UHGV virus genome: UHGV-1421865
DNA from: a virus
Strand: one strand, 5' to 3'
Length of the DNA: 64,000 nt
In this document: positions 1,985-57,454 of the stretch, in pieces
Numbering within the stretch: the stretch's first letter is position 1
Layout: every line of letters begins with the position of its first letter
Notes under the pieces: model-generated
What the model was told of the DNA's origin: nothing
Seen by the model: only the letters and a program-made list of their open reading frames with translations
Database searches by the model: none
Program-made: the position numbers and the translations under genes

Positions 1985-2131
1985 TTTCTGTTTTGTGTAC
2001 TGGTATACCAAACTATAACAAGCCCGTAAAGGCACTTTTTAGCCTCTCTAACGCACTCAAATGTACTTACCTTGGTACTACCAAGCCTCAACAAAAATCG
2101 TGCGTTAGAGGGGAGATTTTTGTGTGTTTTC
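1985..2131 (+). ncRNA. Structured repeat element, copy 1. Conserved 5' segment tttctgttttgtgtactggtat...cgtaaaggcacttttt, then a long nested hairpin (cctctctaacgcac...gtgcgttagagg with inner ccttggta/taccaagg) ending in a U-tract.
   Basis: 14-bp outer stem plus inner hairpin, followed by gagatttttgt. Five further full copies in the window show compensatory substitutions. Confidence 0.55.
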
Positions 2132-2297
2132 AAAATCAACCTACCTATTATGATGTTGGTTGTGTCACAACGTATAATAAAATACATATAAAGCGTACTT
2201 TACGTATATTATATGATACCTTATGGAAAATCACATTAACTTTATTAGTACAGTATCTTTAGTACTGTTTGGTAGCAGTTTAGTGTGATTTTGTCGG

Positions 2298-2444
2298 TTT
2301 CTGTTTTGTGTACTGGTATACCAAACTATAACAAGCCCGTAAAGGCACTTTTTAGCCTCTCTAACGCACTCAAATGAAGTGACCTTAGTAGTACCAAGGT
2401 CAAAGAAAAATCGTGCGTTAGAGGGTAAATTTTGTAGGTTTTTG
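2298..2444 (+). ncRNA. Structured repeat element, copy 2.
   Basis: 5' half identical to copy 1. Inner hairpin changed to gaccttagta/taccaaggtc with base pairing preserved. U-tract aaattttgt. Confidence 0.55.
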
Positions 2445-2450
2445 ATTTAG

Positions 2451-2492
2451 CAAAAAAAAAGACGACCTCAAAATAACTGAGATCGTCTTTTC
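2451..2492. terminator. Bidirectional terminator hairpin (aaaaaaaaagacgacctc...gagatcgtctttt).
   Basis: A-tract, stem, T-tract. Second member of the aagacga/tcgtctt terminator family. Confidence 0.55.
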
Positions 2493-2502
2493 TTATATGG
2501 TA

Positions 2503-2859
2503 TTAGTGTGGTAGCGACTTATAGTTTTTATCAAATGACCTACCGACCTGTGTTAGTACAGGACCGTAACTAGTGCCGATAGTGTCACCTAAATGGTCTA
2601 TTTCACCTGTACCGTATTCCATGTATACGGAAAAGTCGCGGTCTTCAAATTCCTTATTTACAGCATCGACTAAATTGTCTACTGTGTCCGGTGCTGTAAT
2701 TATCTGAAAACAACATTGCTGAAATACCTCATAGTCGAACGTATACAACTTTTGTAGTCTTTTCAATATATTGTTAATATACCATGAACGAGGCATTTGT
2801 GTATACATCACTTTATCAGACTTAACAAGACCGCCTAAGATTACACTGTATTCTTTCAT
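2503..2859 (-). CDS. Hypothetical protein (118 aa).
   Basis: ORF with 4-nt overlap (ATGA) to the upstream repeat-protein gene. No recognisable motif. Confidence 0.45.
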   Translation of the reverse strand: MKEYSVILGGLVKSDKVMYTQMPRSWYINNILKRLQKLYTFDYEVFQQCCFQIITAPDTVDNLVDAVNKEFEDRDFSVYMEYGTGEIDHLGDTIGTSYGPVLTQVGRSFDKNYKSLPH

Positions 2860-3260
2860 AATTTCTTAAATTGTGAGTTATATAATGAAAAATCTGGTTT
2901 ATGTCTATCTAAGATATAACAGCCGAAGAACATTAATGCCGCACTTTTTACATTCGATACGTCCCAACTAGCTAAATCACAATCGAAATCTTTACACAAA
3001 GTAAACATACCGTGCATGTCAGTGACGTTGCTGACGTCCCACTCGTCGATTTTGATGTTTCGAGGGTATAAATTTAGAAATAAATCAGACATGTCTGTTA
3101 TTTTGGATGTGTCGATGAAATTTAGATCTGCATCTGGTCCTTGGCGTTCTAATTCTTTTTCTATAATAGATCTGAGTTCGTCTTTTGTTGTTGATTTTAT
3201 ACTGAGTAATTTAGACTTAGATGTAATACGCAGTCTACTGGGTCTATTATGTATCGCCAT
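2856..3260 (-). CDS. DUF285-type repeat protein paralog. Head MAIHNRPSRLRITSKSK...ELERQGPDADLNFIDTS plus 3 repeats.
   Basis: Conserved head motif and WDVSNVT-xM-MF-xC-xF-CDLSxW repeats. The 5' 35 nt are near-identical to the gene at 15313-16017. Confidence 0.8.
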   Translation of the reverse strand: MAIHNRPSRLRITSKSKLLSIKSTTKDELRSIIEKELERQGPDADLNFIDTSKITDMSDLFLNLYPRNIKIDEWDVSNVTDMHGMFTLCKDFDCDLASWDVSNVKSAALMFFGCYILDRHKPDFSLYNSQFKKL

Positions 3261-3269
3261 AATAACATA

Positions 3270-4628
3270 CTAAAACTGTTTTGTTAATACTGTATTAAGT
3301 CTCTTCAAATCGGCGATGTACATTTCTTCGATTGTTTGTTTCTTAATACGTTTTATTTCTGCTTCTAGTTCTTTGTTGTCTTTTAATAGCTTGTCGTACT
3401 CTTCTTTTGTACACCGCACCATGGAGGTATGAACAAGTTCCCAGAGTAGCTTGTGCTTGTCCATATCGACCTTAATGTCTTTCTGTGGACGGTTGTTGAT
3501 CTTCAATTTGTTCTTTATAATAAGATCTATAAAACGAGCGAGGTCTGTATTCTTGTTGAGTTTCTTATTTAAGATGTCCAACAACAATGTTTTACGCTTC
3601 TTATAAATAGACAACCGCCAGTTTACAAAGTATTCTGTCAATTCATAGATGTTATTGAAATAACGAATTTTCTTGTTCTCGTCTAAGACGTACAACTGGT
3701 CGGACGGTACTTGTTTCGTCAGCTTCAGTGTCGTTCCAACGTATTTGTCGACTTGCTTGTCTGTCAATTTAGCCTTACCGGTACTGGTGAACTTGATTTT
3801 GTAGCTAATGTTAGAACCACTACTATTATTGACATAGTCCTTAACGATACCTTTCTCAATTTGTTTATTAAGGATACTTTCGAAATCGTCGAAGTCTATA
3901 TTATACGGCAACTCTGTTATTTCTAGTGTTGTCGAATTTAGTACTTTGTAAGTACCAGAACACAACCATGTGTTGTTTTCTTTATCGAACAACCATGCCG
4001 ACTTAGGAATATCTCTTATATAAGGACTAATCGTCGGTTTCTTCTTCGATTTTTCCAGGACGGCGATACAGTATTTTGTAACGTCGACAGGATTGTACGA
4101 CATACAGTAGAATCTATACCCCGGCGCCATTCCTTCTTGCATATTACAAATCACAGTCGGAATAATAGGAAGAAAACATTCCGGTTCGACATACTGTCCT
4201 TCGTCGTAGATATATTCCAACAACTCGCTGTCTGTTTTCCATATATCGGCATATTCTGATAACGACACATAAAGATAACGCGGTGCAGAAATTGCCTTCG
4301 GTGTTCGTAGCGTTCCGTTTTGTCCGTCGACGTACAGCGGATTTAGATTGAATCTAAACTGTTGCGACAGGGTGATGATAGTACCGTTCAGTGAGGCGTC
4401 ACCGTGAGGGTATAACGACAGGTTGAGTGTATCGCCCGACAGGTTGAGTAGTTTTTTCGAAGCACCGGATTTTAATCCACCGTTAAACGCAGCGTGCATG
4501 ATCTTTCGAGCACCCGTCTTTAAGCCGTCTCGTAGGTCGGGAAGGGCTCTGTTCTGGAGCACATAAAATACGTACCCTTTGTATTCTTCTGAAAGGAATT
4601 TAGATATATCTTTAGATTGTTTTGTCAT
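3270..4628 (-). CDS. DNA topoisomerase II medium subunit (GyrA/ParC N-terminal breakage-reunion domain, T4 gp52-like).
   Basis: Motifs ALPDLRDGLKTGARKIMHA, LYPHGDASL, YVDGQNGTLRTP and ISAPRYLYV (RY catalytic Tyr) match the GyrA/gp52 signature. 452 aa, close to T4 gp52 length. Confidence 0.8.
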   Translation of the reverse strand: MTKQSKDISKFLSEEYKGYVFYVLQNRALPDLRDGLKTGARKIMHAAFNGGLKSGASKKLLNLSGDTLNLSLYPHGDASLNGTIITLSQQFRFNLNPLYVDGQNGTLRTPKAISAPRYLYVSLSEYADIWKTDSELLEYIYDEGQYVEPECFLPIIPTVICNMQEGMAPGYRFYCMSYNPVDVTKYCIAVLEKSKKKPTISPYIRDIPKSAWLFDKENNTWLCSGTYKVLNSTTLEITELPYNIDFDDFESILNKQIEKGIVKDYVNNSSGSNISYKIKFTSTGKAKLTDKQVDKYVGTTLKLTKQVPSDQLYVLDENKKIRYFNNIYELTEYFVNWRLSIYKKRKTLLLDILNKKLNKNTDLARFIDLIIKNKLKINNRPQKDIKVDMDKHKLLWELVHTSMVRCTKEEYDKLLKDNKELEAEIKRIKKQTIEEMYIADLKRLNTVLTKQF

Positions 4629-4906
4629 ACTTTACTTCTATTGTGCCGTCTGTGATCATAAAACATGTTGTGTAGGTATCTTACGCTACTAGTGTCCCAT
4701 TTATCTATTTTGATGTTACCGACACAAAGACCTTCGAATAAGTAAGACATGTCTGTGATCTTAGATGTGTCGATAAAGTTCAAATCGGCATCGGGACCTT
4801 GAAGTTCCAACTCATGTTTTATAAGAATCTTCAATGCTAATTTTGACGTCGGTCTAGGTCTATACAGCTTTGTAGATGAAGTGATGTGTATTGCCATATA
4901 AATCAA
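4625..4906 (-). CDS. Truncated DUF285-type paralog (head plus 1 repeat). Its 3' end runs into the topoisomerase gene start.
   Basis: MAIHITSSTK...LELQGPDADLNFIDTSKITDMSYLF, then a divergent tail. The likely start is the internal MAIH. Confidence 0.5.
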   Translation of the reverse strand: MIYMAIHITSSTKLYRPRPTSKLALKILIKHELELQGPDADLNFIDTSKITDMSYLFEGLCVGNIKIDKWDTSSVRYLHNMFYDHRRHNRSKV

Positions 4907-5343
4907 ATAATAGGTCTATTATTAGGTTCTAATTTATGTGCACCAAAGAACATTCCTGCTTTAGATCTTAATTTAGAAAGATTCCAGTTTGATAGATCAC
5001 AATTGAATTCACTACAGTTACGGAACATTTGGTGTGTATCTTCCAGATTCGATACGTCCCATCTTGAGATGTTACTATTGAAATGTCGACAATCGTGAAA
5101 CATATAGCGCATGTTTTTCACATTAGAGACATCCCAGTATTCGATTTTGATGTTTCTGATTTGAAGATTTTCAAATAAATAACACATGTCTGTCATCTCT
5201 GATGTGTCGATAAAGTTCAAATCAGCATCCGGACCTTGACGTTCAATTTCTTGTAATATAAGCGCCTTTAATGTATATCGTGATAATACTTTAACTTTGT
5301 ATAGTTTTGAAGATGACGTAATATGTAGTGCCATATAAATCAA
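4903..5343 (-). CDS. DUF285-type repeat protein paralog (146 aa).
   Basis: Head motif QGPDADLNFIDTSEMTDM plus 3 repeats. ATGA overlap with the neighbouring gene. Confidence 0.8.
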   Translation of the reverse strand: MIYMALHITSSSKLYKVKVLSRYTLKALILQEIERQGPDADLNFIDTSEMTDMCYLFENLQIRNIKIEYWDVSNVKNMRYMFHDCRHFNSNISRWDVSNLEDTHQMFRNCSEFNCDLSNWNLSKLRSKAGMFFGAHKLEPNNRPII

Positions 5344-5780
5344 ATAATAGGTCTATTATTAGGTTCTAATTTATGTGCGTACAATAACATACCGTCTGAG
5401 TATTTTAGATTAGACAAGTTCCAACTCGATAGATCACAATTGAATTGTTTACAGCCGTAAAACATCTCTGTCATGTCTGTTACATTCGACACGTCCCAAT
5501 CACCTATACCGGCGCAATTTAAGTCGGTACAGTCATAAAACATGTGTGACATATTTTTGACATTTGAAACGTCCCACTCGTCGATTTTGATGTTTCCTAT
5601 TTCATAGCCTGTATTCTCAAACAAACCACACATATCGGTGACAAGTGATACGTCAATATGGTTCAAATAGGCATCCGGACCTTGTGTACGTAGTTCTTGT
5701 TCTATTATAGCCCGTAATTCCCCCCAAAGTATAGGTTTTATAACGAGATGTTTAGTCTTTGAAGTAATCTTGATTGCCAT
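5340..5780 (-). CDS. DUF285-type repeat protein paralog (146 aa).
   Basis: MAIKITSKTK...QGPDAYLNHIDVS head plus repeats. Confidence 0.8.
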   Translation of the reverse strand: MAIKITSKTKHLVIKPILWGELRAIIEQELRTQGPDAYLNHIDVSLVTDMCGLFENTGYEIGNIKIDEWDVSNVKNMSHMFYDCTDLNCAGIGDWDVSNVTDMTEMFYGCKQFNCDLSSWNLSNLKYSDGMLLYAHKLEPNNRPII

Positions 5781-6292
5781 TATACTTTGAATTTTGGTCT
5801 AAACTTCTTCGGTAGCGCACTACATTTTTCAAAAATGTTATTTATGCGTTTTACTTTTGATACATTCCATCGTGATATGTCTGCATTAAATATCTTACAA
5901 CAATAAAACATATTACTCATCCAAATTACGTTCGAGACATCCCATTCTGAAATATGTGCATTAAATTGTTTACAGCAATAAAACATTGCGCTCATTTCTG
6001 CCACTTTTGATACATTCCAGTTTGACAGATCTGAATTGAACTGTGTACAGCCATAAAACATGTACGACATATTCGTTACGTTTGAAGTGTCCCAGTAGTC
6101 GATTTTGATGTTTCTAGGTTTAAGTTTATTAAATAACGAAGACATGTCTTCAATCAACGACGTGTCGATGAAATTTAGATCTGCATCGGGACCTTGCTGT
6201 TCTAACTCTTGTTCTATCAACAAATGTAACTCCTCTTTCGATGTAGGTCTCTGTATCGCAGATCTAGACTTTGATGTGATTCGTATACGCAT
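5780..6292 (-). CDS. DUF285-type repeat protein paralog. The start is probably the internal Met MRIRITSKS; the ORF track extends to 6325.
   Basis: Head motif plus 4 repeats. Confidence 0.75.
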   Translation of the reverse strand: MRIRITSKSRSAIQRPTSKEELHLLIEQELEQQGPDADLNFIDTSLIEDMSSLFNKLKPRNIKIDYWDTSNVTNMSYMFYGCTQFNSDLSNWNVSKVAEMSAMFYCCKQFNAHISEWDVSNVIWMSNMFYCCKIFNADISRWNVSKVKRINNIFEKCSALPKKFRPKFKV

Positions 6293-6321
6293 AAATTTAG
6301 ATATTATACATAATAATACAA

Positions 6322-6870
6322 TCAAACCAACGACAGTAATCCGTTGACGATACCTTCATCTATTACCGAATTTACACATTTAGATAATACATCAATAGTA
6401 GCTCTGTATATCTTGTTCCTTTTCGGTGTAAATCCAGCATGCTTAGGTTTGTTCTTATTATCAAATGAACTACAAATAGCGAACATAAACCGTACATCGG
6501 TGACCTTACTCATGTTCCAACTGCGTAGGTTACAGTTGAAGTTATGACAATTCATAAACATCCCGTACATATTCCGCACGTTGTGGACGTCCCAATTAGA
6601 TAAGTCACAGTTGAAACTAGGACAGTTATAAAACATGTTCGACATATCCCTCACATTAGAAACGTCCCAGTAGTCGATTTTGATATTTCTAATGTAAAAG
6701 TGATGAAATAAAAAAGTCATGTCTTCAATATCGGACACGTCGATAAAGTTCAAATCGGCATCTGGACCTTGACGTTCTAATTCCTGACGTATCAGTTCTT
6801 GTAGCTCTTCTTTCGTAGTCGGCTTGGGTATTTTTAAGACTCTAGAACTAGATGTGATATGTAGTGCCAT
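6322..6870 (-). CDS. DUF285-type repeat protein paralog (182 aa).
   Basis: MALHITSSSR...ELERQGPDADLNFIDVS plus 3 repeats. Confidence 0.8.
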   Translation of the reverse strand: MALHITSSSRVLKIPKPTTKEELQELIRQELERQGPDADLNFIDVSDIEDMTFLFHHFYIRNIKIDYWDVSNVRDMSNMFYNCPSFNCDLSNWDVHNVRNMYGMFMNCHNFNCNLRSWNMSKVTDVRFMFAICSSFDNKNKPKHAGFTPKRNKIYRATIDVLSKCVNSVIDEGIVNGLLSLV

Positions 6871-6883
6871 AGTTGTATTTTTT

Positions 6884-7489
6884 TTATAACATAAACATAA
6901 ACAGTTGTGGTTTATGATCTGGTTCTATACCACAATTAAGAAATGTACCTGTACAATTTGCACTGTTACATGTAATAAACCAGCTGGAAAGGTCGCCGTT
7001 GAAAATTGTACAACCTTCAAATGTATTATTTAGGGATCTGACATTGGACACTTGTGGTCCCCATTCAGACAAACTACAGTTTAATTTGAAACACTCGTAA
7101 AATGTATTATCTAAGTTCTGTACGTTTGATACATTCCAAAAGTCAAGACCAATACCTTCGAAGTTGTGGCAACCGGAAAACATAGAATCCATCTTTGTGA
7201 CATTGGATACGTCCCACTTAGAAAGATCACAATTCAGTCCAGAACATCCCAAAAACATACCCTCCATATCGGTCACATTGCTGACGTCCCATTCATCGAT
7301 TTTGATATTTCGAATGTAAAATTGGTGAAACAAATACGTCATGTTGGTGATCAAAGATGTGTCTATGAAATTAAGATCAGCATCCGTACCTTGACGTTCT
7401 AGTTCATGAAATATCAACGTAATTAGTTCACGTTTGGTTTCAGGTCTTATTTTGAGTGCTCTTGTCTTAGATGTTATGTGAATTGCCAT
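6884..7489 (-). CDS. DUF285-type repeat protein paralog (201 aa).
   Basis: MAIHITSKTR...ELERQGTDADLNFIDTS plus 5 repeats. Confidence 0.8.
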   Translation of the reverse strand: MAIHITSKTRALKIRPETKRELITLIFHELERQGTDADLNFIDTSLITNMTYLFHQFYIRNIKIDEWDVSNVTDMEGMFLGCSGLNCDLSKWDVSNVTKMDSMFSGCHNFEGIGLDFWNVSNVQNLDNTFYECFKLNCSLSEWGPQVSNVRSLNNTFEGCTIFNGDLSSWFITCNSANCTGTFLNCGIEPDHKPQLFMFML

Positions 7490-7509
7490 AATAATAACAA
7501 TTATAAGAA

Positions 7510-8052
7510 TTACATTAGTCCTAGTATTTTACTAGCAATAGCGTTATCAATAGATTTATTGATAGTTGTAGTCATTTCATCGACTATTTCTTTATCTATA
7601 CTTCCGAGTAACTTTATACCTGGATGATTCGGCTTGTTATTTTCGTCAAAAGATTTACACATCGATAACATAAAGTTTACATTCCTTACACTTGACATGT
7701 CCCAACGTGATAAATCACAATTGAATTCATAACAATTCATAAACATAGCTTGCATGTTTGTCACTTTCGATACATCCCAATATGATAAATCACAGTTGAA
7801 TTTGGTGGCACCGCTAAACATCCCTTCCATTGTTGTCACGTTTGAAGTGTCCCAACTCTCTATCCCGATGTTCCTTATATCGAAATAATAGAATAACCAA
7901 GACATATCGGTAATCAACGACGTATCGATAAAGTTCAAGTCAGCATCCGGACCTTGCTTATATAGTTCTTTATCTATAAGTTGCCTAAGTTCTTTTCTGG
8001 TGGTAGGTCTAAATACCGCCAATTTAGAATCTGATGTGATGTGTATTGCCAT
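7510..8052 (-). CDS. DUF285-type repeat protein paralog (180 aa).
   Basis: MAIHITSDSK...QGPDADLNFIDTS plus 3 repeats. Confidence 0.8.
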   Translation of the reverse strand: MAIHITSDSKLAVFRPTTRKELRQLIDKELYKQGPDADLNFIDTSLITDMSWLFYYFDIRNIGIESWDTSNVTTMEGMFSGATKFNCDLSYWDVSKVTNMQAMFMNCYEFNCDLSRWDMSSVRNVNFMLSMCKSFDENNKPNHPGIKLLGSIDKEIVDEMTTTINKSIDNAIASKILGLM

Positions 8053-8055
8053 AGA

Positions 8056-8835
8056 TCAATAAACTGTGTAAGACCAACCACCACGATCCCCGAAACGTCG
8101 GTACATATCGAGTAGGACAAATTTAGTGTTGTTATACATTGTCGTTTGTGAACCGTGATAGTGACCGTAGTACCATTCTTTTATAGTATATTTTCTAATC
8201 AGTTTGTCGTGCAGCTTGTTTAGACCTTCACGTTCTGCCTTTATATCGTCTTCCAATCTGTCGTCTTGTTCGTACCACTCTTTTAGGTTTATATCACTGT
8301 AAGGGTACACATAATACGGGCTTGAATGTGTGACGACAGTGTCTATATCGAAGTCGGATTTCAGAATCTCGTCTAATACTTCTGGTTTATATACAAAAGC
8401 CTCACCAGGCCAGTAGGTTTTATATACACTATCTTTATCACAACCTATACGCATCTTCCTGTCAATAGACACAGCCCCACCGACAAACAGAAACGTTCTA
8501 TTTTGTGTTTTAATAACAGTATAGTCCGGTACAAACAGTATGTGACCGAAATCGTATGTTAGACGAAACCAAGAAGGATCGTCGTGGTTACCTCGGATAG
8601 CGACAACAGTGCAATCTCGTTCTTCAAGTGTTTTATTAAGGTTGTTTATTCGGATCATCGTGTTTTGAAAGTCACCGAATCCTACACCGAAATCCCCTAC
8701 TTGAACAAGTAGCGTATTTGTTATATCGTTATCTTGAACAAACTTAGAGATAGCTTCGAATTCACCGTGGATGTCACCCAACATTATCACGCTATCGTAG
8801 TCCAGTTTAATTTTGCTTAGTATTTTATAGTCCAT
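8056..8835 (-). CDS. Calcineurin-like metallophosphoesterase.
   Basis: Motifs GDIHGE, VGDFGVGF and IRGNHDD match the GDxHG/GDxxDRG/GNH(D/E) phosphoesterase signature. Confidence 0.65.
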   Translation of the reverse strand: MDYKILSKIKLDYDSVIMLGDIHGEFEAISKFVQDNDITNTLLVQVGDFGVGFGDFQNTMIRINNLNKTLEERDCTVVAIRGNHDDPSWFRLTYDFGHILFVPDYTVIKTQNRTFLFVGGAVSIDRKMRIGCDKDSVYKTYWPGEAFVYKPEVLDEILKSDFDIDTVVTHSSPYYVYPYSDINLKEWYEQDDRLEDDIKAEREGLNKLHDKLIRKYTIKEWYYGHYHGSQTTMYNNTKFVLLDMYRRFGDRGGWSYTVY

Positions 8836-9071
8836 TATTCATTATTAAAATTAGCAAATTGCTCGTTCATTTTATCAAACAGGTCAATGTATTGATCATG
8901 GTACTTTTCTCGACGCTCTTGTGACATATTAAGAATACCTGTTTGAATAATACCATCTAATAAGCGCCATTCTTGTCTAGTTAATGTAAGAGAATAATTT
9001 TGTGATGACGGTACGCTCCTTTTACATATACGTCTTACTCGTTTAATTATATCTTTAATGAAGTCTAACAT
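8835..9071 (-). CDS. Hypothetical protein (78 aa).
   Basis: ORF abutting the upstream gene. No motif. Confidence 0.4.
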   Translation of the reverse strand: MLDFIKDIIKRVRRICKRSVPSSQNYSLTLTRQEWRLLDGIIQTGILNMSQERREKYHDQYIDLFDKMNEQFANFNNE

Positions 9072-9074
9072 ATT

Positions 9075-9506
9075 CTAATTTATGTTTTGATGTATCTTAA
9101 ATAGAATTTTTACATTATTGTTTTCTACAATCTCCAACACAGACCAGTAGGTATCGTACTCGTACACAGTAACGACGACCTTGTCTCCGGTATATGTATT
9201 TAGACCTTTCATGATAAGTTTTTTGAGCCGCTTGCCGTCCCGCTTATAATATGTTTTCTTATAAGACTCAAATGTATAAAAGTATTGGTCTCCTTCGTTG
9301 TCTTCCATCGCCATTCTGGGATAGTCGAGTTCCATATACAGCTTAATCTGTGACTCTCTGTACTCGGACCAACGTTCACCTTCATTGTTCGATACGTAAA
9401 CAGTTCCACATTTATAAGTGCGTATAGGGCCGGCACCCACACTACTTGCATTGAATAACAAAGCCATTAATACTGTGATTATTCCATATTTGAGATAGAT
9501 ACCCAT
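9075..9506 (-). CDS. Secreted hypothetical protein with an N-terminal signal peptide.
   Basis: Hydrophobic N-terminus MGIYLKYGIITVLMALLFNASSVGAG. Confidence 0.5.
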   Translation of the reverse strand: MGIYLKYGIITVLMALLFNASSVGAGPIRTYKCGTVYVSNNEGERWSEYRESQIKLYMELDYPRMAMEDNEGDQYFYTFESYKKTYYKRDGKRLKKLIMKGLNTYTGDKVVVTVYEYDTYWSVLEIVENNNVKILFKIHQNIN

Positions 9507-9871
9507 GTTGATTAAATAGTTGATTTGTGTATTATATAGTCTATTTTATGCTGAGAATCAGTGCATGTGACGTCCAGATTATTAACTATATTTTTGATAC
9601 AGATATGGACATCAAAAACGCACCGAAAAGTAAAATGTCGTTATATAAAGAAAAATATGAATACAACGGTAGTAACAAGTACGACTATGCCGCGAACGGG
9701 GTACTCACCAAAACACTTCCGAAGATACTATTTAAGGGCAATTCCTTGTTCGTTACATTCTTACAACTCATTGACCTTCGTATTATCAACCTACTAAAAT
9801 ACATCGACGAACTTAAAAACTTCAAGTCTGTTTGATACTATTTTGCTCGCATTTTGGTCTGATTTGCGCGG

Positions 9872-10015
9872 TTTCTGTTTTGTGTACTGGTATGCAAATA
9901 CCCAACGTCCACGTAAAGGCACTTTTTAGGCTCTCTGGCGCACTCAAATTAGTTGGGCTTAGTATGTGTAAGGTCCAACAAAAATCGTGCGTTACAGGGC
10001 AAATTTTCTTAGGTT
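9872..10015 (+). ncRNA. Structured repeat element, copy 3.
   Basis: Conserved 5' segment. Outer stem ctctctggcgcac/gtgcgttacaggg with G-U and compensatory changes. U-tract aaattttctt. Confidence 0.5.
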
Positions 10016-10030
10016 TGGACTTTAGAAAAT

Positions 10031-10068
10031 AAACAAGACGATCTTATTCACTTAGGATCGTCTTGTTT
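10031..10068. terminator. Terminator hairpin aacaagacgatc-loop-gatcgtcttgttt (perfect 12-bp stem).
   Basis: Third member of the aagacgatc terminator family. Sits directly after ncRNA-like copy 3 and the convergent gene end at 10080. Confidence 0.6.
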
Positions 10069-10079
10069 ATTGTGTGTTA

Positions 10080-10709
10080 TTATTTCGAAGTGCCATAGAA
10101 ATATAGCACTTCGTCTTCTTTTTGGTCTTGAAGGTACTTATAATATCTCATTGTAATGAATACTCTATCGTCGTGACGTGTAACCTCACAAATCCGAACA
10201 ACACCGTCATCGGAGCGAACAAGATAAAGATCTTTGTTTGTAGTCACGTCAAACGACTTGCCCAGGATAAGCAACGTTTCCTTACCTCGTTTTAGGATGT
10301 ACTCGTCTTCTACGGTGTACACACCAGCGTATATCGTAGTGTACTTTGTTTTCTGGTGGACGATACTATTATATAAGCGTTTTATAAATTGCGTCAAAGT
10401 ATCAAACACATTCATATTATATTGTTTTTTATTTGTACATTGGCTGACTACGAAAGCGCGACACGGAATTCCCACATCATAGAATGTAACGTAGTCTTCG
10501 TTGTCGAAAATTCTAGTAACACCGCGTAGTTCTAAGATACCGTCTTCTAACTGATAATAAAACGAACTGATTTCATACCAACCGCTATCGCTATTAGTTA
10601 TAGTTGTCAATGTTGGTGTTCCTAACTTTAACAGAGCTGCCGCTTCATGTATGCTATAACAAGGTCTCTCTTTGTTATTGATGAGTTCAATTGCTTCTTT
10701 CACTTTCAT
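10080..10709 (-). CDS. Hypothetical protein with an N-terminal helix-turn-helix-like segment (YSIHEAAALLKLGTPTL).
   Basis: Excisionase/MerR-like HTH resemblance only. Confidence 0.45.
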   Translation of the reverse strand: MKVKEAIELINNKERPCYSIHEAAALLKLGTPTLTTITNSDSGWYEISSFYYQLEDGILELRGVTRIFDNEDYVTFYDVGIPCRAFVVSQCTNKKQYNMNVFDTLTQFIKRLYNSIVHQKTKYTTIYAGVYTVEDEYILKRGKETLLILGKSFDVTTNKDLYLVRSDDGVVRICEVTRHDDRVFITMRYYKYLQDQKEDEVLYFYGTSK

Positions 10710-10974
10710 AGTCCAACCAAATCCATTTATTCAAGATACAATGATATGCGAACGCTAAACCGGAGTTTGCCACTAAGTAATTCACTTGCTCGTCCGTAAC
10801 GTCGGTAATATAACATACAGGATTAAAATCCCACCAGTCAATTGTTTTAGGTAAACCAACGGCACTTTCGTCAATAAAATACTCATCAAGTTCTAAAAGA
10901 ACACGTAAGTCAATTTGTACTTTTTGAAACTGTTGCATCGTTATAGTTTTTGAATTACAGAAAGGACTTTCCAA
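10687..10974 (-). CDS. Hypothetical small protein (95 aa).
   Basis: ORF in a co-directional gene string. Confidence 0.35.
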   Translation of the reverse strand: MESPFCNSKTITMQQFQKVQIDLRVLLELDEYFIDESAVGLPKTIDWWDFNPVCYITDVTDEQVNYLVANSGLAFAYHCILNKWIWLDYESERSN

Positions 10975-11273
10975 TAGTCGAATACAGAAAACAGTTCGGC
11001 CATTTCTTTCATTGCTTCGTCTGATGTTATAGCCAATATATGTAGGTTAGTAATATGCTCGGTGTCCAACCCGTGTGCAGAAATAAAATTCAGTACGTCA
11101 TCAACACTTGAAATTCTGTATTTTACCAAATCAGAAGGTGTAATGTCTAAGGTGTATTCATCCTTGTCCGTAGAGAATTGACATTCTAGTGCCAATTTAT
11201 CGTCGTATTTGTCATATCTAGACACATAGTAGTTGTGTTTATGATAGAACGTCATGTTAATTTGTTGCGACAT
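10941..11273 (-). CDS. Hypothetical small protein (110 aa).
   Basis: ORF in a co-directional gene string. Confidence 0.4.
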   Translation of the reverse strand: MSQQINMTFYHKHNYYVSRYDKYDDKLALECQFSTDKDEYTLDITPSDLVKYRISSVDDVLNFISAHGLDTEHITNLHILAITSDEAMKEMAELFSVFDYWKVLSVIQKL

Positions 11274-11467
11274 AAATACTGTTTTACACTGTTCAAATCA
11301 AAACTGGCGTGATGAATGGCGCGCCATGCCCCGTAGAGGTACGTTTGTTCATATTGCCCAAGCGAATTTACGATGTTAGGCTCTAATATCTGTCTTAGTC
11401 GCTCATCAGCTTTGTTTATAATTTTACTTAATTCGACTATTTCGTTGTAAAATTCTTTTGTATTCAT
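11252..11467 (-). CDS. Hypothetical small protein (71 aa).
   Basis: ORF in a co-directional gene string. Confidence 0.35.
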   Translation of the reverse strand: MNTKEFYNEIVELSKIINKADERLRQILEPNIVNSLGQYEQTYLYGAWRAIHHASFDLNSVKQYLCRNKLT

Positions 11468-11522
11468 GTGCGTTTAAGTTCAATGAATAAATATATAAGT
11501 CCTCCAACAAATACGATACCGA

Positions 11523-11855
11523 TTACATAAGCAATACAACCGGAAGGACATAGTTGTTATCGTTGGCAACTCTCTGCCTCGTATGCAACGGAATGCTTAC
11601 ACCACCACCGTAAGTCTGGTAAGTCGAGAAACTGACCGGCATGTTATAAGGCATATAATCAGGATAATATGGCTTGATGTTCATATACAAGTCATCATCA
11701 CCCATTATTTCGTCACAGTCATTTTGAGTCATTTCTATACCAGCTACAATACCGGTACAGTTTTCTTCGGTAAGATTCCAACCATAAAGTGCGCACAGTC
11801 CAGAAACAACAATTGCTACAACAACGATGGTTTTGAGATTCATCAACTTAGTCAT
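11523..11855 (-). CDS. Small secreted or membrane protein (110 aa).
   Basis: N-terminal hydrophobic segment IVVVAIVVSGLCALYGW. Confidence 0.45.
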   Translation of the reverse strand: MTKLMNLKTIVVVAIVVSGLCALYGWNLTEENCTGIVAGIEMTQNDCDEIMGDDDLYMNIKPYYPDYMPYNMPVSFSTYQTYGGGVSIPLHTRQRVANDNNYVLPVVLLM

Positions 11856-11872
11856 GATTTATTACCTTTTAA

Positions 11873-12058: not shown

Positions 12059-12144
12059 GATAAAATAGAATTTGTGCTCTTGTACGAGCGGTGAAACATA
12101 GTTGATTCAATGCAGATATAAAGCGTTACTATGAATTGTCATGT

Positions 12145-47100: not shown

Positions 47101-47127
47101 CACTTAAAGAAATAAAAGAACAAGTAT

Positions 47128-47475: not shown

Positions 47476-47983
47476 GAATATCAAGTCGGCTATCGAGGCC
47501 GAGAAACAAAGGATGTACGATAAGGCTCGCCACGATTTCTGTACGTTTGAAGACTACGTACGAGAAATGAAGCCTTATTTCGATACGTTGTTTGCTAATA
47601 AAGATGATCTGATTGCTATCGATAAGAAGGTGTTCAGTTTGGATTTTTGTACTATTCATATCGATTCGTGTACGGTAGTATTTTCGTCTCGCGACACTGG
47701 TTCTTCGGAATGGTTGAAAGTCACTGTACAGTCCAATAATACTGGCGGTCTGTGTTTCGAATACAAAGTCACCGATAGTGGTCTAAGTGGTGCACATCTA
47801 ACTTTCCCGTTCCCTCGCGATGTAGACTATACCGTATCGTCGTTCGATGAGCTAGTTCAGACATCTAAACATGACTGTTGGATTAACTTCTTTATAAACG
47901 AACTGTCGAAAATAAACAGATGCTTACGAGTAAATGTAGACAGTCCCGATAGTGTTGGTGGTTGTATTTTGAATTTTTTGTAA
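47444..47983 (+). CDS. Hypothetical protein (179 aa).
   Basis: ORF only. Confidence 0.45.
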   Translation: MFSEQLKNKIENIKSAIEAEKQRMYDKARHDFCTFEDYVREMKPYFDTLFANKDDLIAIDKKVFSLDFCTIHIDSCTVVFSSRDTGSSEWLKVTVQSNNTGGLCFEYKVTDSGLSGAHLTFPFPRDVDYTVSSFDELVQTSKHDCWINFFINELSKINRCLRVNVDSPDSVGGCILNFL

Positions 47984-47991
47984 TATGTAAT

Positions 47992-48429
47992 ATGCCACCA
48001 ACTATAAAACCATCAATCAAACCGGTGCTCAGAGCTATCATAGAGATAGAGTTGAAACAACAAGGTCCCGATGCCGACTTGAACCATATTGATACATCGG
48101 AGATTACCGACATGAAAGAACTGTTTGTTGGTCTAAAGATTCGAAACATCAAAATCGACAAATGGGATGTCTCTAACGTTACGAACATGCAAGGGATGTT
48201 CTCCGGTTGTACAGAGTTCAATTGTGATCTGTCGAACTGGAATGTATCCAATGTGGAAAATATGAATTGTATGTTTTTTGACGCTAGGTTATTTACTTCG
48301 CGTCTCTTCAGTTGGAATCTTTCTAAGATACCGAAGAAAAGGATGATGTTTCACGGTGCATGTATGTTTATTAGGACACTTTACTCAATGAATGAATTTA
48401 CATTAGAAGAACTTTGTGACGCATTTTAG
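47992..48429 (+). CDS. DUF285-type paralog with a divergent N-terminus (MPPTIKPSIKPVLRAIIEIELKQQGPDADLNHIDTS).
   Basis: Core head plus 3 repeats. An alternative upstream start at 47962 overlaps the previous gene. Confidence 0.7.
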   Translation: MPPTIKPSIKPVLRAIIEIELKQQGPDADLNHIDTSEITDMKELFVGLKIRNIKIDKWDVSNVTNMQGMFSGCTEFNCDLSNWNVSNVENMNCMFFDARLFTSRLFSWNLSKIPKKRMMFHGACMFIRTLYSMNEFTLEELCDAF

Positions 48430-48431
48430 TT

Positions 48432-50071: not shown

Positions 50072-50112
50072 TTCAAAATAAATTACTATCTTTGCATTGT
50101 AATCAAAAAATG
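50072..50112 (+). promoter_or_regulatory. Conserved promoter-like element in plus orientation (ttcaaaataaattactatctTTGcattgtaatcaaaaa) with the -7 motif TAtcTTTG.
   Basis: Same 35-nt family as the four minus-strand copies. 8 nt upstream of the ATG at 50120. Confidence 0.5.
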
Positions 50113-50119
50113 AACCGCA

Positions 50120-51712: not shown

Positions 51713-52468
51713 ATGCCTATACACATCACATCTAAGACTAAATCACTAAGGGTACGACCGGCGTCAAAAGACGAGCTACGGTTCTTGATAAAGGAAGAAC
51801 TACAATGTCAAGGTCCTGATGCTGATCTAAATTTCATTGATACATCGTTGATTACAGACATGTCTCATTTGTTTTCTTTCCCATTAGACCTGCATGTACA
51901 TGTAGGTAACATCAAAATCGACGAGTGGGACACTTCAAAGGTCACAGATATGTCTTATATGTTTGTAGATTGTCCATGTTTATATTGTGATCCTTCCAGA
52001 TGGAACGTATCTGGCGTCATTAGTATGGGGTGTATGTTTGGTGGTTGTAGAGAACTTGATTGTGACTTGTCAAATTGGAATGTCTCTAATGTAGTAGATA
52101 TATCAAAGATGTTCAAGGACTGTTATCGATTCAGAGGTACAGGATTGCCGGATTGGAATGTACAGAGGCTACAGAAGATGGAGAGTGCGTTTAAGCACTG
52201 CCATATACTCAATTGTGATTTGTCGGGCTGGGAGTTTTCGAATCCGGTTGATATGTTCTATGCTTTCGACGGTTGTTATTCATTTCCCGACGATTATAAA
52301 CCAAAGCAAGTTCATCGTACAGCTACATCTACGCAGTCAATACAGACCGCTATAACAAATCTTGCGTCATTACAGAACAATGCTATGAGTAGGTGTATTG
52401 GTAATAATAGTGCGTTGATTATGAACGAAGAAATGTATAAGGCCTTTATTAGTATTTATTCTGATTGA
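51713..52468 (+). CDS. DUF285-type repeat protein paralog (251 aa) with a unique C-terminal extension.
   Basis: MPIHITSKTKS...QGPDADLNFIDTS plus 5 repeats. Confidence 0.8.
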   Translation: MPIHITSKTKSLRVRPASKDELRFLIKEELQCQGPDADLNFIDTSLITDMSHLFSFPLDLHVHVGNIKIDEWDTSKVTDMSYMFVDCPCLYCDPSRWNVSGVISMGCMFGGCRELDCDLSNWNVSNVVDISKMFKDCYRFRGTGLPDWNVQRLQKMESAFKHCHILNCDLSGWEFSNPVDMFYAFDGCYSFPDDYKPKQVHRTATSTQSIQTAITNLASLQNNAMSRCIGNNSALIMNEEMYKAFISIYSD

Positions 52469-54836: not shown

Positions 54837-54839
54837 GTT

Positions 54840-56702
54840 ATGGTAAATCTTTCAAGAAAAACTGGTTCAGATACGCTCGACGAATACGATGAGTTTAGAT
54901 ATACCAAAACTTCTTTACTATATGCTGCCGAAGCCGATGGAGACCTGGATAAACGTGTAAAGATTTTCGATTATATCGACGATGAAAATAACGAAGGAAC
55001 ATTCTACTATGACATGTTGGAGTTTTTTCGTTTCTTAGACCCGTCGGATCCTGACACAAACGGCCATATTGCGTACACTACACCGGACCATTTGTTGTAT
55101 TTCAATGCACCAAATGAATACATCAAGAATCCTAGAGAACTTGCACAATGGGACTTTGTATATTGTCATGAGTGTTTGCACCAGATTTGGGACACTTTCG
55201 CTGTCGGTGAGAAGATCAAGGCAGACGGTCTGGAATACAACCACCGATTGCTGAATATCGCCGCTGACTGTATCATTAACGACTTCTTGCGTCGCATTGA
55301 AAAGAAAGTACCGTTTGAAGAAGGTATTTTCCCCGAGACTATTGAAGAGCAATTTGGTGGTATCAAGTATAATCCGAAGAAGGACACACAGTATTCGCTT
55401 TATGTAAAGCTTCAAAAATGGTTGAAAGATAACAATGAAGATCTTAATAAGAAAATCAACCAAGATGAGAAGTTCAAAAAAGCTGTAGAACAGTCTGAGA
55501 AACACGAACGCGGTGATGGTCCTAACGACAAACAACCCACCGACTCTCAAGACGGTCAACAAGGTCAAGGTAGTGACGGTCAAGGCCAACAAGGTCAGTC
55601 TGGTGACTCTCAAGACGGTAGTCAACAAGGACAAGGTGGTGACGGTCAGGGCGACGGTGACGGTCAAAGTGGCAACCAAGACGGTGATCAGCAAGGTCAG
55701 AGTGATGGTCAAGGCAGTGACGGTCAAGGACAAGACAGTCAAGGTCAACAAGGTAACCAAGCCAACCAAGGTAGCGGTTCTAAGAACAACCAAAGCAAGA
55801 ACGGTGCTGGTGACGGTCAACAAGGACAAGGCAACGGTGACGGTCAAGGTGGTCAAGGTGGTGCCGGTAAGGGAAACGGAGCCTTAGGTGACGCTAAAGA
55901 AATCAGCGCTGCAGAACAAGCCGCTATTCGTGAAAAGGCTCGTAAGGTAATCAACAAGTACAAAGACGCCATGAGCGGTAACCTCGGTGACTTTATCAAG
56001 AAATGTAAGAGTTCTGTAAAGGGTGAATCGCAAGGTATCGACGTCGGTGTTCGTTCCGGTAACCATTCTAATTGGAACAAGACATTGACTACAAATATCA
56101 TGTCTTATGTGAGCCAACGTGTTAGAACTCGTACACAATATGAATCGTCATGGCGTAGAATCAGTAGACGACAGAATACAGTGAAGCCCGGTGATCTACT
56201 GATGAAGGGTAAGAAACGTAAGAAGGACCAGATTAAGGTAAACATTGCGTTCTATATCGACTGTTCAGGTTCTATGAGTAGCTGTATTGACAATGTATTT
56301 GATTCGGCTATCGCTATCGGTGAAGCACTCAAGAAGAACTTCGGACGAGAAGCGTCTAGTTCTAACGGTGCTATTTCTGAATTTGAATTTAAGACGTTTG
56401 TATTTAACGATTCTATACATCCTGTAGAATGGGGTAAACGTTACGGTGCTAGCGGCGGTACATTGCCGTTCGACGGTATTGTCGACTATATCAAGGAGAA
56501 CACTAACGATTATCTTATCAACGTTATTATTACCGACGCTGAATTCGATATTAAGCGAGATGTAGTAATGGGTATGCTTAATGAGGTGTACGGACTAATT
56601 CAGTTTGTTACGAACTCGTCTAATAAGACTATTGAATCTATGGCTATGGGTTCTAAAGGTAAGCTACAGTACATTGAGGCAGATTCTAACTTCAGTGTCT
56701 GA
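54840..56702 (+). CDS. VWA-domain protein with an N-terminal HExxH metallopeptidase-like domain and a Gly/Gln/Asp-rich low-complexity linker.
   Basis: HECLH motif. MIDAS motif IDCSGSMSS. ~110-aa (DGQGQ)n linker. Gene order AAA+ then VWA. Confidence 0.75.
   Translation: MVNLSRKTGSDTLDEYDEFRYTKTSLLYAAEADGDLDKRVKIFDYIDDENNEGTFYYDMLEFFRFLDPSDPDTNGHIAYTTPDHLLYFNAPNEYIKNPRELAQWDFVYCHECLHQIWDTFAVGEKIKADGLEYNHRLLNIAADCIINDFLRRIEKKVPFEEGIFPETIEEQFGGIKYNPKKDTQYSLYVKLQKWLKDNNEDLNKKINQDEKFKKAVEQSEKHERGDGPNDKQPTDSQDGQQGQGSDGQGQQGQSGDSQDGSQQGQGGDGQGDGDGQSGNQDGDQQGQSDGQGSDGQGQDSQGQQGNQANQGSGSKNNQSKNGAGDGQQGQGNGDGQGGQGGAGKGNGALGDAKEISAAEQAAIREKARKVINKYKDAMSGNLGDFIKKCKSSVKGESQGIDVGVRSGNHSNWNKTLTTNIMSYVSQRVRTRTQYESSWRRISRRQNTVKPGDLLMKGKKRKKDQIKVNIAFYIDCSGSMSSCIDNVFDSAIAIGEALKKNFGREASSSNGAISEFEFKTFVFNDSIHPVEWGKRYGASGGTLPFDGIVDYIKENTNDYLINVIITDAEFDIKRDVVMGMLNEVYGLIQFVTNSSNKTIESMAMGSKGKLQYIEADSNFSV
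55540..55870 (+). repeat. In-frame low-complexity tandem repeats (gacggtcaaggt units) encoding the DGQGQQG linker.
   Basis: Seen directly. Also generates a spurious 273-aa antisense ORF. Confidence 0.7.
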
Positions 56703-56723
56703 CTTTATTGAATAACTAAATAT

Positions 56724-56757
56724 AAAAGACGATCTTAATTTTTTGAGGTCGTCTTTT
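56724..56757. terminator. Terminator hairpin aaaagacgatc-loop-ggtcgtctttt (fourth family member).
   Basis: A-tract, stem, T-tract after the VWA gene. Confidence 0.55.
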
Positions 56758-56783
56758 ATGATTTTTAAGATATAATAACAAAT

Positions 56784-57293
56784 ATGTCGATACACATCAC
56801 ATCAAATACAAAACTTCTTAATCCGAAACCGGTCAATAAAGAACAACTAAGGTCTATTATAAGTGACGAGTTGAAACAACAAGGTCCAGATGCCGATTTG
56901 AACCATATTGACACATCTAAGATCACCGATATGTCTAGTTTGTTTATAGATCTCCGTCCAGAAAATATCAAGATAGACGAGTGGGACGTTTCTAATGTTA
57001 CTAATATGCGACAGTTATTTATGAACTGTGGTGACCTTGTTGCTGACCTGTCCGACTGGAATGTATCAAATGTAACAGACATGTACGGTATGTTTTTTAA
57101 CTGTTATAATTTCAATTCAGATTTGTCCGGTTGGGACGTCGGCAATGTTAAAAATACAAGGTATATGTTTTATAGGTGTTATGGATTAAATACAGATTTA
57201 TCAAATTGGAAACTTAAAAGCGGTTGCTTTACCAATGACATGTTCACCGAAGCCGATAAACAACGAATTCCTAGTTGGTACACACGAAGATAA
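56784..57293 (+). CDS. DUF285-type repeat protein paralog (169 aa).
   Basis: MSIHITSNTK...QGPDADLNHIDTS plus 4 repeats. Confidence 0.8.
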   Translation: MSIHITSNTKLLNPKPVNKEQLRSIISDELKQQGPDADLNHIDTSKITDMSSLFIDLRPENIKIDEWDVSNVTNMRQLFMNCGDLVADLSDWNVSNVTDMYGMFFNCYNFNSDLSGWDVGNVKNTRYMFYRCYGLNTDLSNWKLKSGCFTNDMFTEADKQRIPSWYTRR

Positions 57294-57308
57294 GCTGATT
57301 TTGTGTGG

Positions 57309-57454
57309 TTTCTGTTTTGCGTACTGGTACGTAAATATGTAACGTCCTCATAAAGGTACTTTAGAGGCCCTCTGTCGCGTCAAAACTAGTTAGGCTTGGT
57401 ATGTGTAAGCCTCAACAAAAACAACGCGATACGGGGCAAATTTTTGGACGTTTT
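57309..57454 (+). ncRNA. Structured repeat element, copy 6 (most diverged, fully compensated stems).
   Basis: Stems ccctctgtcgcgt/acgcgatacgggg and aggctt/aagcct. U-tract aaatttttgg. Confidence 0.5.

Follow-up and report, generated by a model that had tools for sequence, protein, structure and literature searches.

Dispersed intergenic repeats of bacteria include the Correia elements of Neisseria, the enterobacterial REP/BIME and ERIC sequences, and the pneumococcal BOX and RUP elements, which are chromosomal and often possess terminal inverted repeats with target duplications, or a dedicated transposase. In T4-type phages, promoter-early stem-loops (PeSLs) have been described as composite terminator/promoter cassettes (Arbiol et al. 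2010, PMC2839356; Comeau et al. 2014, PMC4122927). In a PeSL, the stem-loop directly precedes a sigma-70-type -35/-10 promoter, which is followed by a ribosome-binding site and by the next gene's start codon; the cassette is co-directional with the genes (PMC2839356; PMC4122927). Stand-alone small RNA genes with an intrinsic terminator at their end include small RNAs located between dual terminators, namely rrA, rrB, and rrF of E. coli (PMC8144298).

The window analyzed in this study, i.e., the whole 64 kb stretch of DNA, belongs to a giant phage of the gut or mouth that is related to Lak megaphages and has a genome of ~0.5 Mb. It contained nine copies of a strand-specific intergenic repeat, all full length according to an nhmmer profile and a covariance model. 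The repeat unit was about 170-190 nt and ended in a long hairpin followed by a T-run. Six close copies (c1-c6), all on the plus strand, shared 73-78% identity across 157-192 nt, and the alignment confirmed the positions given for them in an earlier, sequence-only reading. The three "half copies" of that reading turned out to be diverged full-length copies that keep both domains, as both the profile and the covariance model matched h3 (57497-57683, plus strand), h1 (40019-39819, minus strand), and h2 (42647-42435, minus strand). Its unit of ~150 nt was too short: conservation starts ~30 nt further upstream and stops ~10-15 nt past the ends it proposed. A 40-nt degenerate pattern of the hairpin domain had seven matches in the window and none in shuffles. 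Also, the same element was found in related phage genomes, with ~22 further copies in metagenomic contigs (flanking identity, 80-97%), some of them at the same syntenic loci as the window copies. The repeat was absent from IMG/VR, GenBank phages, and 35 kb of Lak-A1, and a search of Rfam returned no family that it resembles in sequence. The repeat is non-coding, as each reading frame was broken by stops in many copies.

The anatomy of the element was read on its own strand, with c5 (33023-33219, plus strand; profile and covariance model) as the reference copy. The 5' end consists of ~30 nt with four T-tracts at 10-11 nt spacing, the third of which is the CTGATTTTG box (33044-33052, plus strand). 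This box corresponds to the upstream half of the gene promoters of this phage, which take the form CTGATTTTGT-N11-12-CTATATATAAT and stand ahead of at least eight genes. No TATA-type -10 element was recognizable 3' of the box in the elements, and given this result an internal promoter is putative. The T-tracts are followed by a leader of ~75 nt, in which conserved blocks are broken by a mosaic variable block; the GGTTTCTGTTTTGCGTAC block (33055-33072, plus strand) was the most conserved of the 5' half in the conservation profile, and the CGTAAAGGCACTTTTTAG block (33097-33114, plus strand) was located immediately before the stem. Based on RNAalifold, pair counts, and minimum-free-energy folds, the 3' domain (33115-33185, plus strand) forms an extended hairpin of 71 nt. 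Its 13-pair outer stem (33115-33128 with 33172-33185) opens into an internal loop of 11 x 11 nt, the sequence of which is conserved (TCAAATGTACT and CAAGAAAAATC), and an inner hairpin lies beyond this loop (33140-33160). The 3' tail, AAGTTTTTAGATGGTT (33186-33201, plus strand), contains a T-run 3-4 nt past the stem and then a second short T-run. The conserved 5' segment, long outer stem, inner hairpin, and AAATTTTT run noted earlier were each present, and conservation was arranged in blocks that include the unpaired loops.

The fold of the 3' domain was recovered by RNAalifold on six copies as well as on 26 copies, and the supported fold is limited to this domain. No conserved structure was found in the 5' half, where shuffles paired equally well as the real alignment and the test of a 5' hairpin was negative. 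Across the whole structure, 91% of the cells were paired, versus 27-45% with the partners slid. Eight pairs had changed on both sides, a number reached by 6 of 500 shuffles; this support is modest and came mostly from one small clade (c6, h1, and h3), and kin copies can outscore shuffles even without structure. In the outer stem, 94% of the cells were paired, and the copies fell into two self-consistent types, ACGCAC/GTGCGT and TCGCGT/ACGCGA (GTCGCGT/ACGCGAT in c6), which are three compensated pairs apart, with no hybrid arms among the 26 copies. At the base of the inner hairpin, 10 of the 11 copies with a variant arm were mismatched hybrids, and aggctt/aagcct was the single compensated case. 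The compensatory changes reported earlier, and with them the argument that selection acts on the fold of a single strand and not just on its sequence, therefore hold for the outer stem and not for the inner hairpin or, as regards selection, the 5' half. Even among the outer-stem examples, the second (c3) was a one-sided A-to-G change yielding G·U pairs. As hybrids of the inner hairpin are tolerated and small hairpins have been inserted in some copies, stem included, many copies may be weakly constrained.

The two strands of the element differed. On the element strand, the stem cells held 56 G·U pairs versus 17 A·C mismatches, and only this strand carried the T-rich flank after the hairpin. The folding energy of c5 was -41.5 kcal/mol on the element strand versus -31.3 kcal/mol on the other; c2 was an exception, in which the opposite strand folds about equally well, slightly better. 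Overall, the predicted fold favors the element strand. An ancestral accident could account for each of the two positions at which G·U is nearly fixed, and variation there is uninformative because transitions from G·T always yield Watson-Crick pairs.

The placement of the copies was biased as well. Copy c1 (1950-2140, plus strand; profile E = 2.8e-54, covariance model 157.7 bits) was directly 3' of the bidirectional terminator of a 618-aa gene, and together with the spacer behind it was missing in one related contig (L041) and kept in another (L048). Copy c2 (2266-2459, plus strand; profile, and covariance model 164.9 bits), which had orthologs in both contigs, had a bidirectional terminator behind it, beyond which a convergent gene ends at 2503. 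Since c1 and c2 are enclosed by these two canonical bidirectional terminators, read-through from the neighboring genes is unlikely to transcribe them. The remaining plus-strand copies, each identified by both profile and covariance model, were found in various settings: c3 (9837-10038) between a small plus-strand ORF directly upstream (9548-9835) and a bidirectional terminator (10028-10071); c4 (28058-28237) antisense between two minus-strand genes, with a DUF285 gene whose stop codon is 4 nt off the 3' end of the copy; c5 antisense between the genes for a 1240-aa helicase-like protein and a 169-aa protein, with an ortholog in contig L047; and c6 (57280-57470) co-directional with the DUF285 genes on its flanks. 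In h3, a small unrelated hairpin, X (57645-57667), replaced the 3' arm and T-run. Closer to four of the six close copies (c1, c2, c4, and c6) flank repeat-protein arrays, rather than five as first suggested. Among 28 copies, a count that includes orthologous loci more than once, 10 were in convergent gaps, 12 antisense between co-directional genes, four sense, and about one divergent, and the downstream neighbor was a convergent gene in 22, mostly 2-80 nt off; by unique locus, the settings were roughly six convergent, eight antisense, three sense, and one divergent. Copies occurred about once per 7 kb, and the canonical terminator family of the phage itself often followed 15-25 nt past the element.

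In the best reading of these comparisons, the repeat appears to work like the PeSLs, yet is no PeSL. Both are conserved intergenic cassettes of short length that combine promoter-like and stem-loop parts and recur many times within a large T4-related myovirus-type genome; both cluster in plastic regions rich in small accessory genes, border indels between close relatives, and have genes between two direct copies. In contrast to a PeSL, the repeat carries its hairpin ~100 nt 3' of the promoter-like box, has neither a -10 element nor a downstream gene, spans ~190 nt with much conserved sequence beyond a regulatory consensus, and in most cases runs antisense to its neighbors or converges with them. 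With the dispersed repeats of bacteria, it shares a length of 100-200 nt, strictly intergenic sites, a predicted RNA fold, a putative capacity to give terminators or promoters, and use as a recombination substrate, whereas it resides in a phage genome and has no sequence similarity in Rfam; moreover, no inverted ends or duplications were seen in the alignment. Like a small RNA gene, the repeat is a compact unit ending in a hairpin and U-run between terminators (c1 and c2), and its conserved unpaired 5' part could serve as a seed. It differs in its putative promoter and transcript and in its tens of copies per genome, to our knowledge far more than in any small RNA family. In addition, complementary targets were not enriched: sequences complementary to the 11-nt 5' block occurred eight times outside the elements versus about 2.6 expected, with no gene-start pattern.

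We tentatively favor, at somewhat less than even chances, the explanation that each element forms a module complete in itself, strand-specific and located where transcription units meet, which is composed of a promoter-like box, a structured RNA, and a one-way terminator and doubles as recombination homology. Transcription of the element strand would begin at or near the box, or come in from a co-oriented upstream gene, and would stop at the hairpin and T-run, so that the RNA would measure ~130-170 nt; any action of this RNA in trans would be a further step. Because the terminator would be one-way, copies would persist only where no operon is cut. The tolerated sites would be convergent gaps or antisense positions between co-directional genes, where the element may block backward transcription into the neighboring gene. 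The conserved unpaired blocks suggest that a protein may also recognize the RNA or the site. As the copies are ~190 bp, 70-95% alike, and spaced at about every 7 kb, they could provide homology patches for the gain, loss, and swap of cassettes. Points that count against the module include a T-run that begins 3-4 nt past the stem, an unusual distance for an intrinsic terminator, and the separate canonical terminators that the phage owns close by.

The role in recombination received direct comparative evidence. The gene encoding the large subunit of ribonucleotide reductase (40032-42428, plus strand; Pfam Ribonuc_red_lgC) was bordered by the direct copies h1 on the left, antisense to its flanking genes, and h2 on the right, which bears a ~27-nt hairpin insertion in its 5' half. 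In two related contigs (L052 and L056), the gene was missing and a single copy of the repeat was present at this position, as indicated by a BLAST synteny break and junction alignment, and the homology break fell within the element; the direction of such events can only be presumed. The variable block of the L047 copy is unlike that of its ortholog c5 and like that of c4, indicating that copies exchange segments. These findings, together with the c1 indel, the hybrid arms of the inner hairpin, the arrays of paralogous DUF285 genes that copies adjoin, and the precedent of T4-type phages (PMC4122927), would also suit a pure PeSL-kind cassette, kept alike by gene conversion, whose only effect is to supply homology for gene shuffling in plastic regions and whose RNA has no function. 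We regard this as unlikely, though worth serious weight, as homology alone leaves unexplained the conservation in blocks, unpaired loops included, as well as the one-strand T-run and the orientation bias. Hybrid outer stems are also absent although the arms are 45 nt apart, and the single copy of the two relatives is no simple h1/h2 recombinant. A packaging signal, another role proposed earlier, was without support.

Non-autonomous transposition as single-stranded DNA, as in miniature IS200/IS605 derivatives or REP, with a transposase encoded elsewhere in the genome, appears improbable. The strand-specific hairpin that tolerates G·T pairs, the lack of terminal inverted repeats, as is usual for this class, the many copies at solely intergenic sites, and a TTTTG-type motif present in both the left flank and the right end would fit such an element. 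Also, a second hairpin element of ~30 nt is inserted precisely in some copies, indicating that small hairpin elements are mobile in the clade. However, no pair of filled and empty sites with breakpoints at the element ends was found, ~110 nt of spacer belong to the c1 indel, the 5' hairpin was unsupported and the ends lack similar hairpins, a scan of about 40 window proteins revealed neither a transposase nor a recombinase, and copies are retained at syntenic loci across genomes that are 12-20% different.

We would also give little credence to a function of the opposite strand, as a stabilizer or processing site in the 3' untranslated region or between cistrons of the mRNA of the adjacent gene, despite the reverse complement being just past a stop codon, on the strand of that gene, in 22 of 28 copies, and the slightly better fold of c2 there. 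On that strand, A·C mismatches take the place of the two nearly fixed G·U pairs, the outer stem is split into short pieces, and A-runs rather than T-runs stand beside the hairpin; six copies are oriented the other way, and strong terminators part c1 and c2 from both neighboring genes. A double-stranded site recognized by a protein of the phage or its host, such as a replication origin, a compaction or partition site, or a cruciform, is very improbable, since the T-tract phasing of 10-11 nt as in bent DNA, the near-perfect inner palindrome with 9-10 bp arms, and the spacing of about 7 kb are outweighed by asymmetric conserved internal loops and strand-specific T flanks unexpected for a dimer-binding palindrome, by half-sites that vary independently (position 136/144: GT 11, AT 7, AC 5, GC 3), and by outer arms that co-vary as pairs, not half-sites.

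Taken together, the strand-specific module at transcription-unit borders remains our tentative preference, and the leading candidate roles of the repeat are still those proposed earlier, namely a small RNA, an elaborate terminator, or a recombination signal. As a putative RNA, this structured repeat of a Lak-related phage matched none of the described RNA families.

A repeat search recovered the six plus-strand copies described in the sequence-only reading as families D12 and D13, with 73-78% identity across 157-192 nt, and these six aligned cleanly with one another. A degenerate 40-nt pattern of the hairpin domain matched the window seven times and its shuffles not once. With a profile built from 26 copies, we found exactly nine copies in the window, each with 5' and 3' domains, and a covariance model recovered the identical set. 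These comprise six close copies on the plus strand, c1 (1950-2140), c2 (2266-2459), c3 (9837-10038), c4 (28058-28237), c5 (33023-33219) and c6 (57280-57470), and three diverged copies, h3 (57497-57683, plus strand), h1 (40019-39819, minus strand) and h2 (42647-42435, minus strand). The last three had been taken for half copies; because the profile covers both domains in all nine, they are instead diverged full copies, one of which carries an insertion of ~27 nt while another has a small unrelated hairpin in place of the 3' arm and T-run. The positions first assigned to the copies were right but the starts were not, as conservation begins ~30 nt further upstream and ends beyond a second short T-run; therefore, the unit is ~170-190 nt long. 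The best reading frame was open in only 14 of 24 copies, with three stops in c2, and since no frame is open across all copies, the element is not coding.

RNAalifold predicted structure only in the 3' domain, with 6 as well as with 26 copies. In this domain, a 13-pair outer stem containing one mismatch is separated from an inner hairpin by an 11 x 11 internal loop whose sequence is conserved (CTCAAATGnAnT and CAAAGAAAAATC). Among the 26 copies, 91% of cells were paired, compared with 27-45% when the partners were slid by 1-3 columns. Changes on both sides were found at eight pairs, which 6 of 500 shuffles matched, and the covariation score was matched by 2 of 500, a signal that comes mostly from one clade. 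The compensatory substitutions earlier proposed for both stems hold in the outer stem, where the types ACGCAC/GTGCGT and TCGCGT/ACGCGA stand three compensated pairs apart and no copy combines the 5' arm of one type with the 3' arm of the other, the arms being 45 nt apart. They do not hold at the base of the inner hairpin, where a variant arm occurs in 11 copies, compensated in c6 and forming mismatched hybrids in the remaining 10. Whole-element folds of canonical copies reached -39 to -46 kcal/mol (z-scores of -2.6 to -3.8), and the outer stem and inner hairpin provide the stable, G+C-containing hairpin expected of an intrinsic terminator. No fold is supported for the 5' half. Folding of single sequences pointed to a hairpin there (GYGTAC-TGG-GTATRC plus GUUU/AAAC), which was rejected, as shuffles pair equally well. 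Pairing of the variable 5' blocks with one another, or of the 5' block with the A-rich internal loop, was likewise looked for in the alignment; the combinations proved mosaic, without covariation.

One metagenome scan added ~22 copies, carried by contigs that are 80-97% identical to the window and syntenic with it, namely ERZ651108 NODE-4 and NODE-28, BNJU01003715, and several short contigs. A search of related phage genomes, proposed in the sequence-only reading, thus found the element at the same loci across different genomes, with counterparts of the c1/c2 locus in L048 (BNJU01003715) and L041 (ERZ651108 NODE-4), of c5 in L047, of h1 in L052 and L056, and of c6 in L045 and L042. The Rfam search suggested alongside it (Rfam 15, whole window) returned nothing at gathering thresholds, and positions 1900-2500 gave only sub-threshold noise at E values up to 10. 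BLAST against GenBank phages gave no match to the element. Two element-specific patterns had zero matches in IMG/VR, the 36 matches of a third, looser pattern were attributed to chance since none had a profile hit, and a protein-anchored search of IMG/VR found no relative. Species-representative genomes gave three matches, all by chance, and the covariance model was negative across 35 kb of Lak-A1.

Placement was tallied for the 28 copies with readable flanks. In 22 of them the gene past the 3' end of the element is convergent, usually at a distance of 2-80 nt. Ten copies lie in convergent gaps, 12 antisense between co-directional genes, four in the sense orientation, and about one in a divergent gap; counted by unique locus (roughly six, eight, three, and one, respectively), the trend is suggestive, not proven. 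In the antisense settings, the next gene's divergent promoter directly adjoins the 5' end of the element. Canonical bidirectional terminators, two of which enclose c1 and c2, occur 15-25 nt beyond many copies. They form a sequence family of their own (AAAAGACGAnCTC...GAGnTCGTCTTTT, or AAGACACTGT...ACAGTGTCTT) and were found at 1923-1958, 2452-2493, 10028-10071, ~39775-39830, and ~56720-56760. The window also contains more than 30 paralogous genes of the DUF285 family (BspA-like 25-residue repeats), an extreme expansion of one accessory family. Their arrays, on both strands, mark plastic regions (2856-8052, 15313-16017, 22130-22639, 24415-24903, 25907-26467, 28241-30186, 46293-48429, 51713-52468, and 56784-63797). 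Additionally, the 3' part of a gene for a 618-aa protein (1423-1811, plus strand) contains 87/174-nt tandem repeats encoding 29/58-residue units.

The motif CTGATTTTGT-N11-12-CTATATATAAT precedes at least eight genes of the window by 28-47 nt, with start codons at 21603, 26467, 27994, and 32956 on the minus strand and at 42825, 46293, 52554, and 9548 on the plus strand, and probably represents a phage promoter class. A sigma-70-family factor is encoded at 44957-46129. The element has four T-tracts at intervals of 10-11 nt; the third is a CTGATTTTG box shared with these gene promoters, and no -10 or TATA-type second half was found after it. An internal promoter is plausible. The Bacteroidota promoter consensus has TTTG at -33 and TAnnTTTG at -7, and comparison by eye with this consensus gave only partial matches at wrong spacings. 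As for targets in trans, complements of the 5' block occurred at eight sites versus ~2.6 expected, a weak excess with no positional pattern, and the exact match, at 12162, falls within an ORF for a small membrane protein.

Other putative signals were observed in the intergenic DNA. A promoter-like TGATTTTCCATAAGGTATCATATAATATA on the minus strand of the c1-c2 spacer (2205-2233), partly conserved in BNJU01003715, faces back through c1 and might yield an antisense c1 transcript; the 88-aa ORF that would follow it (1921-2187) spans element and terminator and looks spurious. A conserved block of ~40 nt, TTCAAAATAAATTGCTATCTTTATATTGTAATCAAAAA, lies ahead of four small genes (~12360-12400, ~13040-13080, and ~13450-13490 on the minus strand; ~50075-50115 on the plus strand), in some cases followed by a conserved leader hairpin, ATGTTTCACCGCTCnTACAAGAGCA (12075-12099 and 13403-13427, minus strand), and may constitute a second family of promoters or leaders. 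Two long intergenic gaps (27179-27291 and 46122-46187) contain tandem 20-32-nt repeats based on GTCTTGTACAGTCTTGT, upstream of genes at 27145 (minus strand) and 46293 (plus strand), which may represent iterons or arrayed binding sites of a regulator.

Taken together, we tentatively interpret the element as a strand-specific boundary module, made up of a promoter-like box, then a leader of conserved sequence, then a long hairpin that ends in a T-run. The hairpin and T-run would end transcription in one direction only, for which the orientation bias gives indirect evidence. Such a one-way terminator would be tolerated only where it cuts no operon, in keeping with the observed placement. An additional recognition function is suggested by the conserved unpaired blocks, and homology between copies makes them sites of cassette exchange. 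The main rival explanation, that only a role in recombination is real, appears rather unlikely to us.

Comparison with related contigs points to recombination at the copies. The gene for the ribonucleotide reductase large subunit (40032-42428) has the direct copies h1 and h2 on either side. In L052 and L056 this gene is absent; its neighbors adjoin, with one canonical copy between them, and the homology to the window is interrupted within the element. Similarly, c1 and ~110 nt of spacer are missing from NODE-4 and present in BNJU01003715. These differences indicate that cassettes have been gained or lost at the copies. The variable block of the L047 copy matches c4, not the orthologous c5, even though the flanking gene is 96.7% identical, and hairpins with hybrid arms are common among copies; therefore, copies exchange segments.

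The closest described system is PeSL, the T4-type promoter/stem-loop cassette, in which a stem-loop terminator directly precedes a sigma-70-like -35/-10 promoter; a ribosome-binding site comes next, and then the start codon of a gene in the same orientation (PMC4122927). Both are multicopy regulatory cassettes that occupy plastic regions and mark the borders of indels; the reductase cassette between h1 and h2, the c1 indel, and the copies adjoining DUF285 arrays correspond to the locations of PeSL. However, the order is reversed in the element, whose only promoter-like box precedes the hairpin by ~100 nt, and there is neither a -10 nor a downstream co-oriented gene, the neighbor being convergent in most copies (22 of 28). 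The element is also three times longer, with sequence conserved beyond a regulatory consensus. Membership in PeSL is thus ruled out by architecture and orientation. Correia and REP elements, dispersed repeats of bacteria, behave similarly, but the element lacks their defining ends. Likeness to a CRISPR repeat (Cas12a handle) was rejected because the required stem is missing.

It is doubtful, although conceivable, that every copy is independently transcribed, so that tens of genes would produce one structured RNA of ~150 nt whose dose acts in trans. Such an RNA might, for example, act as a sponge or decoy and sequester a host protein that binds RNA, degrades RNA, or functions in defense, or it might assist a phage protein as its cofactor. 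In either case, the conserved internal loop would be the recognition site. If true, this would be a multicopy family of non-coding RNA genes unprecedented in phages. An S1 RNA-binding domain occurs in a 336-aa protein of the window (22770-23780, minus strand), which is a possible partner for a phage RNA.

Both ends are T-rich on the same strand in the 26 aligned copies, with neither terminal inverted repeats nor target-site duplications at their borders, unlike in a MITE. A mobile element propagated through a single-stranded hairpin is improbable. No transposase or recombinase was present among the ~40 window proteins scanned, the window being a minor part of the genome. Considering an IS200/IS605-derived or REP-like origin, no precise empty site was found at the loci compared, and a 5' subterminal hairpin was unsupported, as shuffles pair equally well. 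A second repeat of ~30 nt, TGGnACACACAACGTGTCCCACACGGTGTT, with a 9-pair stem and a CCC loop, occurs inside some copies of the main element at differing points, apparently after TTA, and also alone or in tandem in intergenic DNA. It was found at 57645-57667 and, on the minus strand, at 42656-42678 and 42687-42709, and in the related contigs L045 (~1110-1140), L057 (~1960-1990), L053 (~12700-12730), and L041 (~10905-10935). This hairpin behaves like a tiny insertion element, with precise presence or absence.

An mRNA element formed on the opposite strand is similarly improbable. The stems contained 56 G·U cells versus 17 A·C cells, and two nearly fixed G·U positions of the outer stem become mismatches on the opposite strand. 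The T-rich flanks, including a T4-6 run that begins 3-4 nt past the stem (GGGC-AAA-TTTTT), an offset unusual for an intrinsic terminator, are found only on the element strand, which reads from the 5' half to the 3' domain. Therefore, this strand most likely forms the structure, as RNA or single-stranded DNA. Folding energy is not decisive by itself, favoring the element strand in c5 (-41.5 versus -31.3 kcal/mol) and being about equal for both strands in c2. A protein-binding site in double-stranded DNA is very improbable.

The window derives from a large phage that has not been cultivated. For its topoisomerase II subunit, the best match among GenBank phages was to proteins of Prevotella Lak megaphages (46-47% identity), and contigs from human-associated metagenomes encode the same protein; one of these (L037, sample SAMEA2738095) corresponds to positions 2009-14628 in reverse. 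Apart from dozens of paralogous DUF285 repeat proteins, the window encodes a gp32-like protein, anaerobic and aerobic ribonucleotide reductases, and the sigma-70-family factor, and contains no tRNA or tmRNA genes. To our knowledge, Lak-type huge phages are known solely from metagenomes. The element bears on two questions about such phages, the organization of transcription across half a megabase and the gain and loss of accessory genes; since it marks the borders of transcription units and cassettes in one clade, it offers a concrete, searchable landmark for both. Should an RNA be made, the element would define a structured RNA family that is new and whose gene dose is unusually high. Should none be made, the idea of "regulatory cassette shuffling" developed for T4 would extend, with a different architecture, to distant giant phages of the Bacteroidota type.
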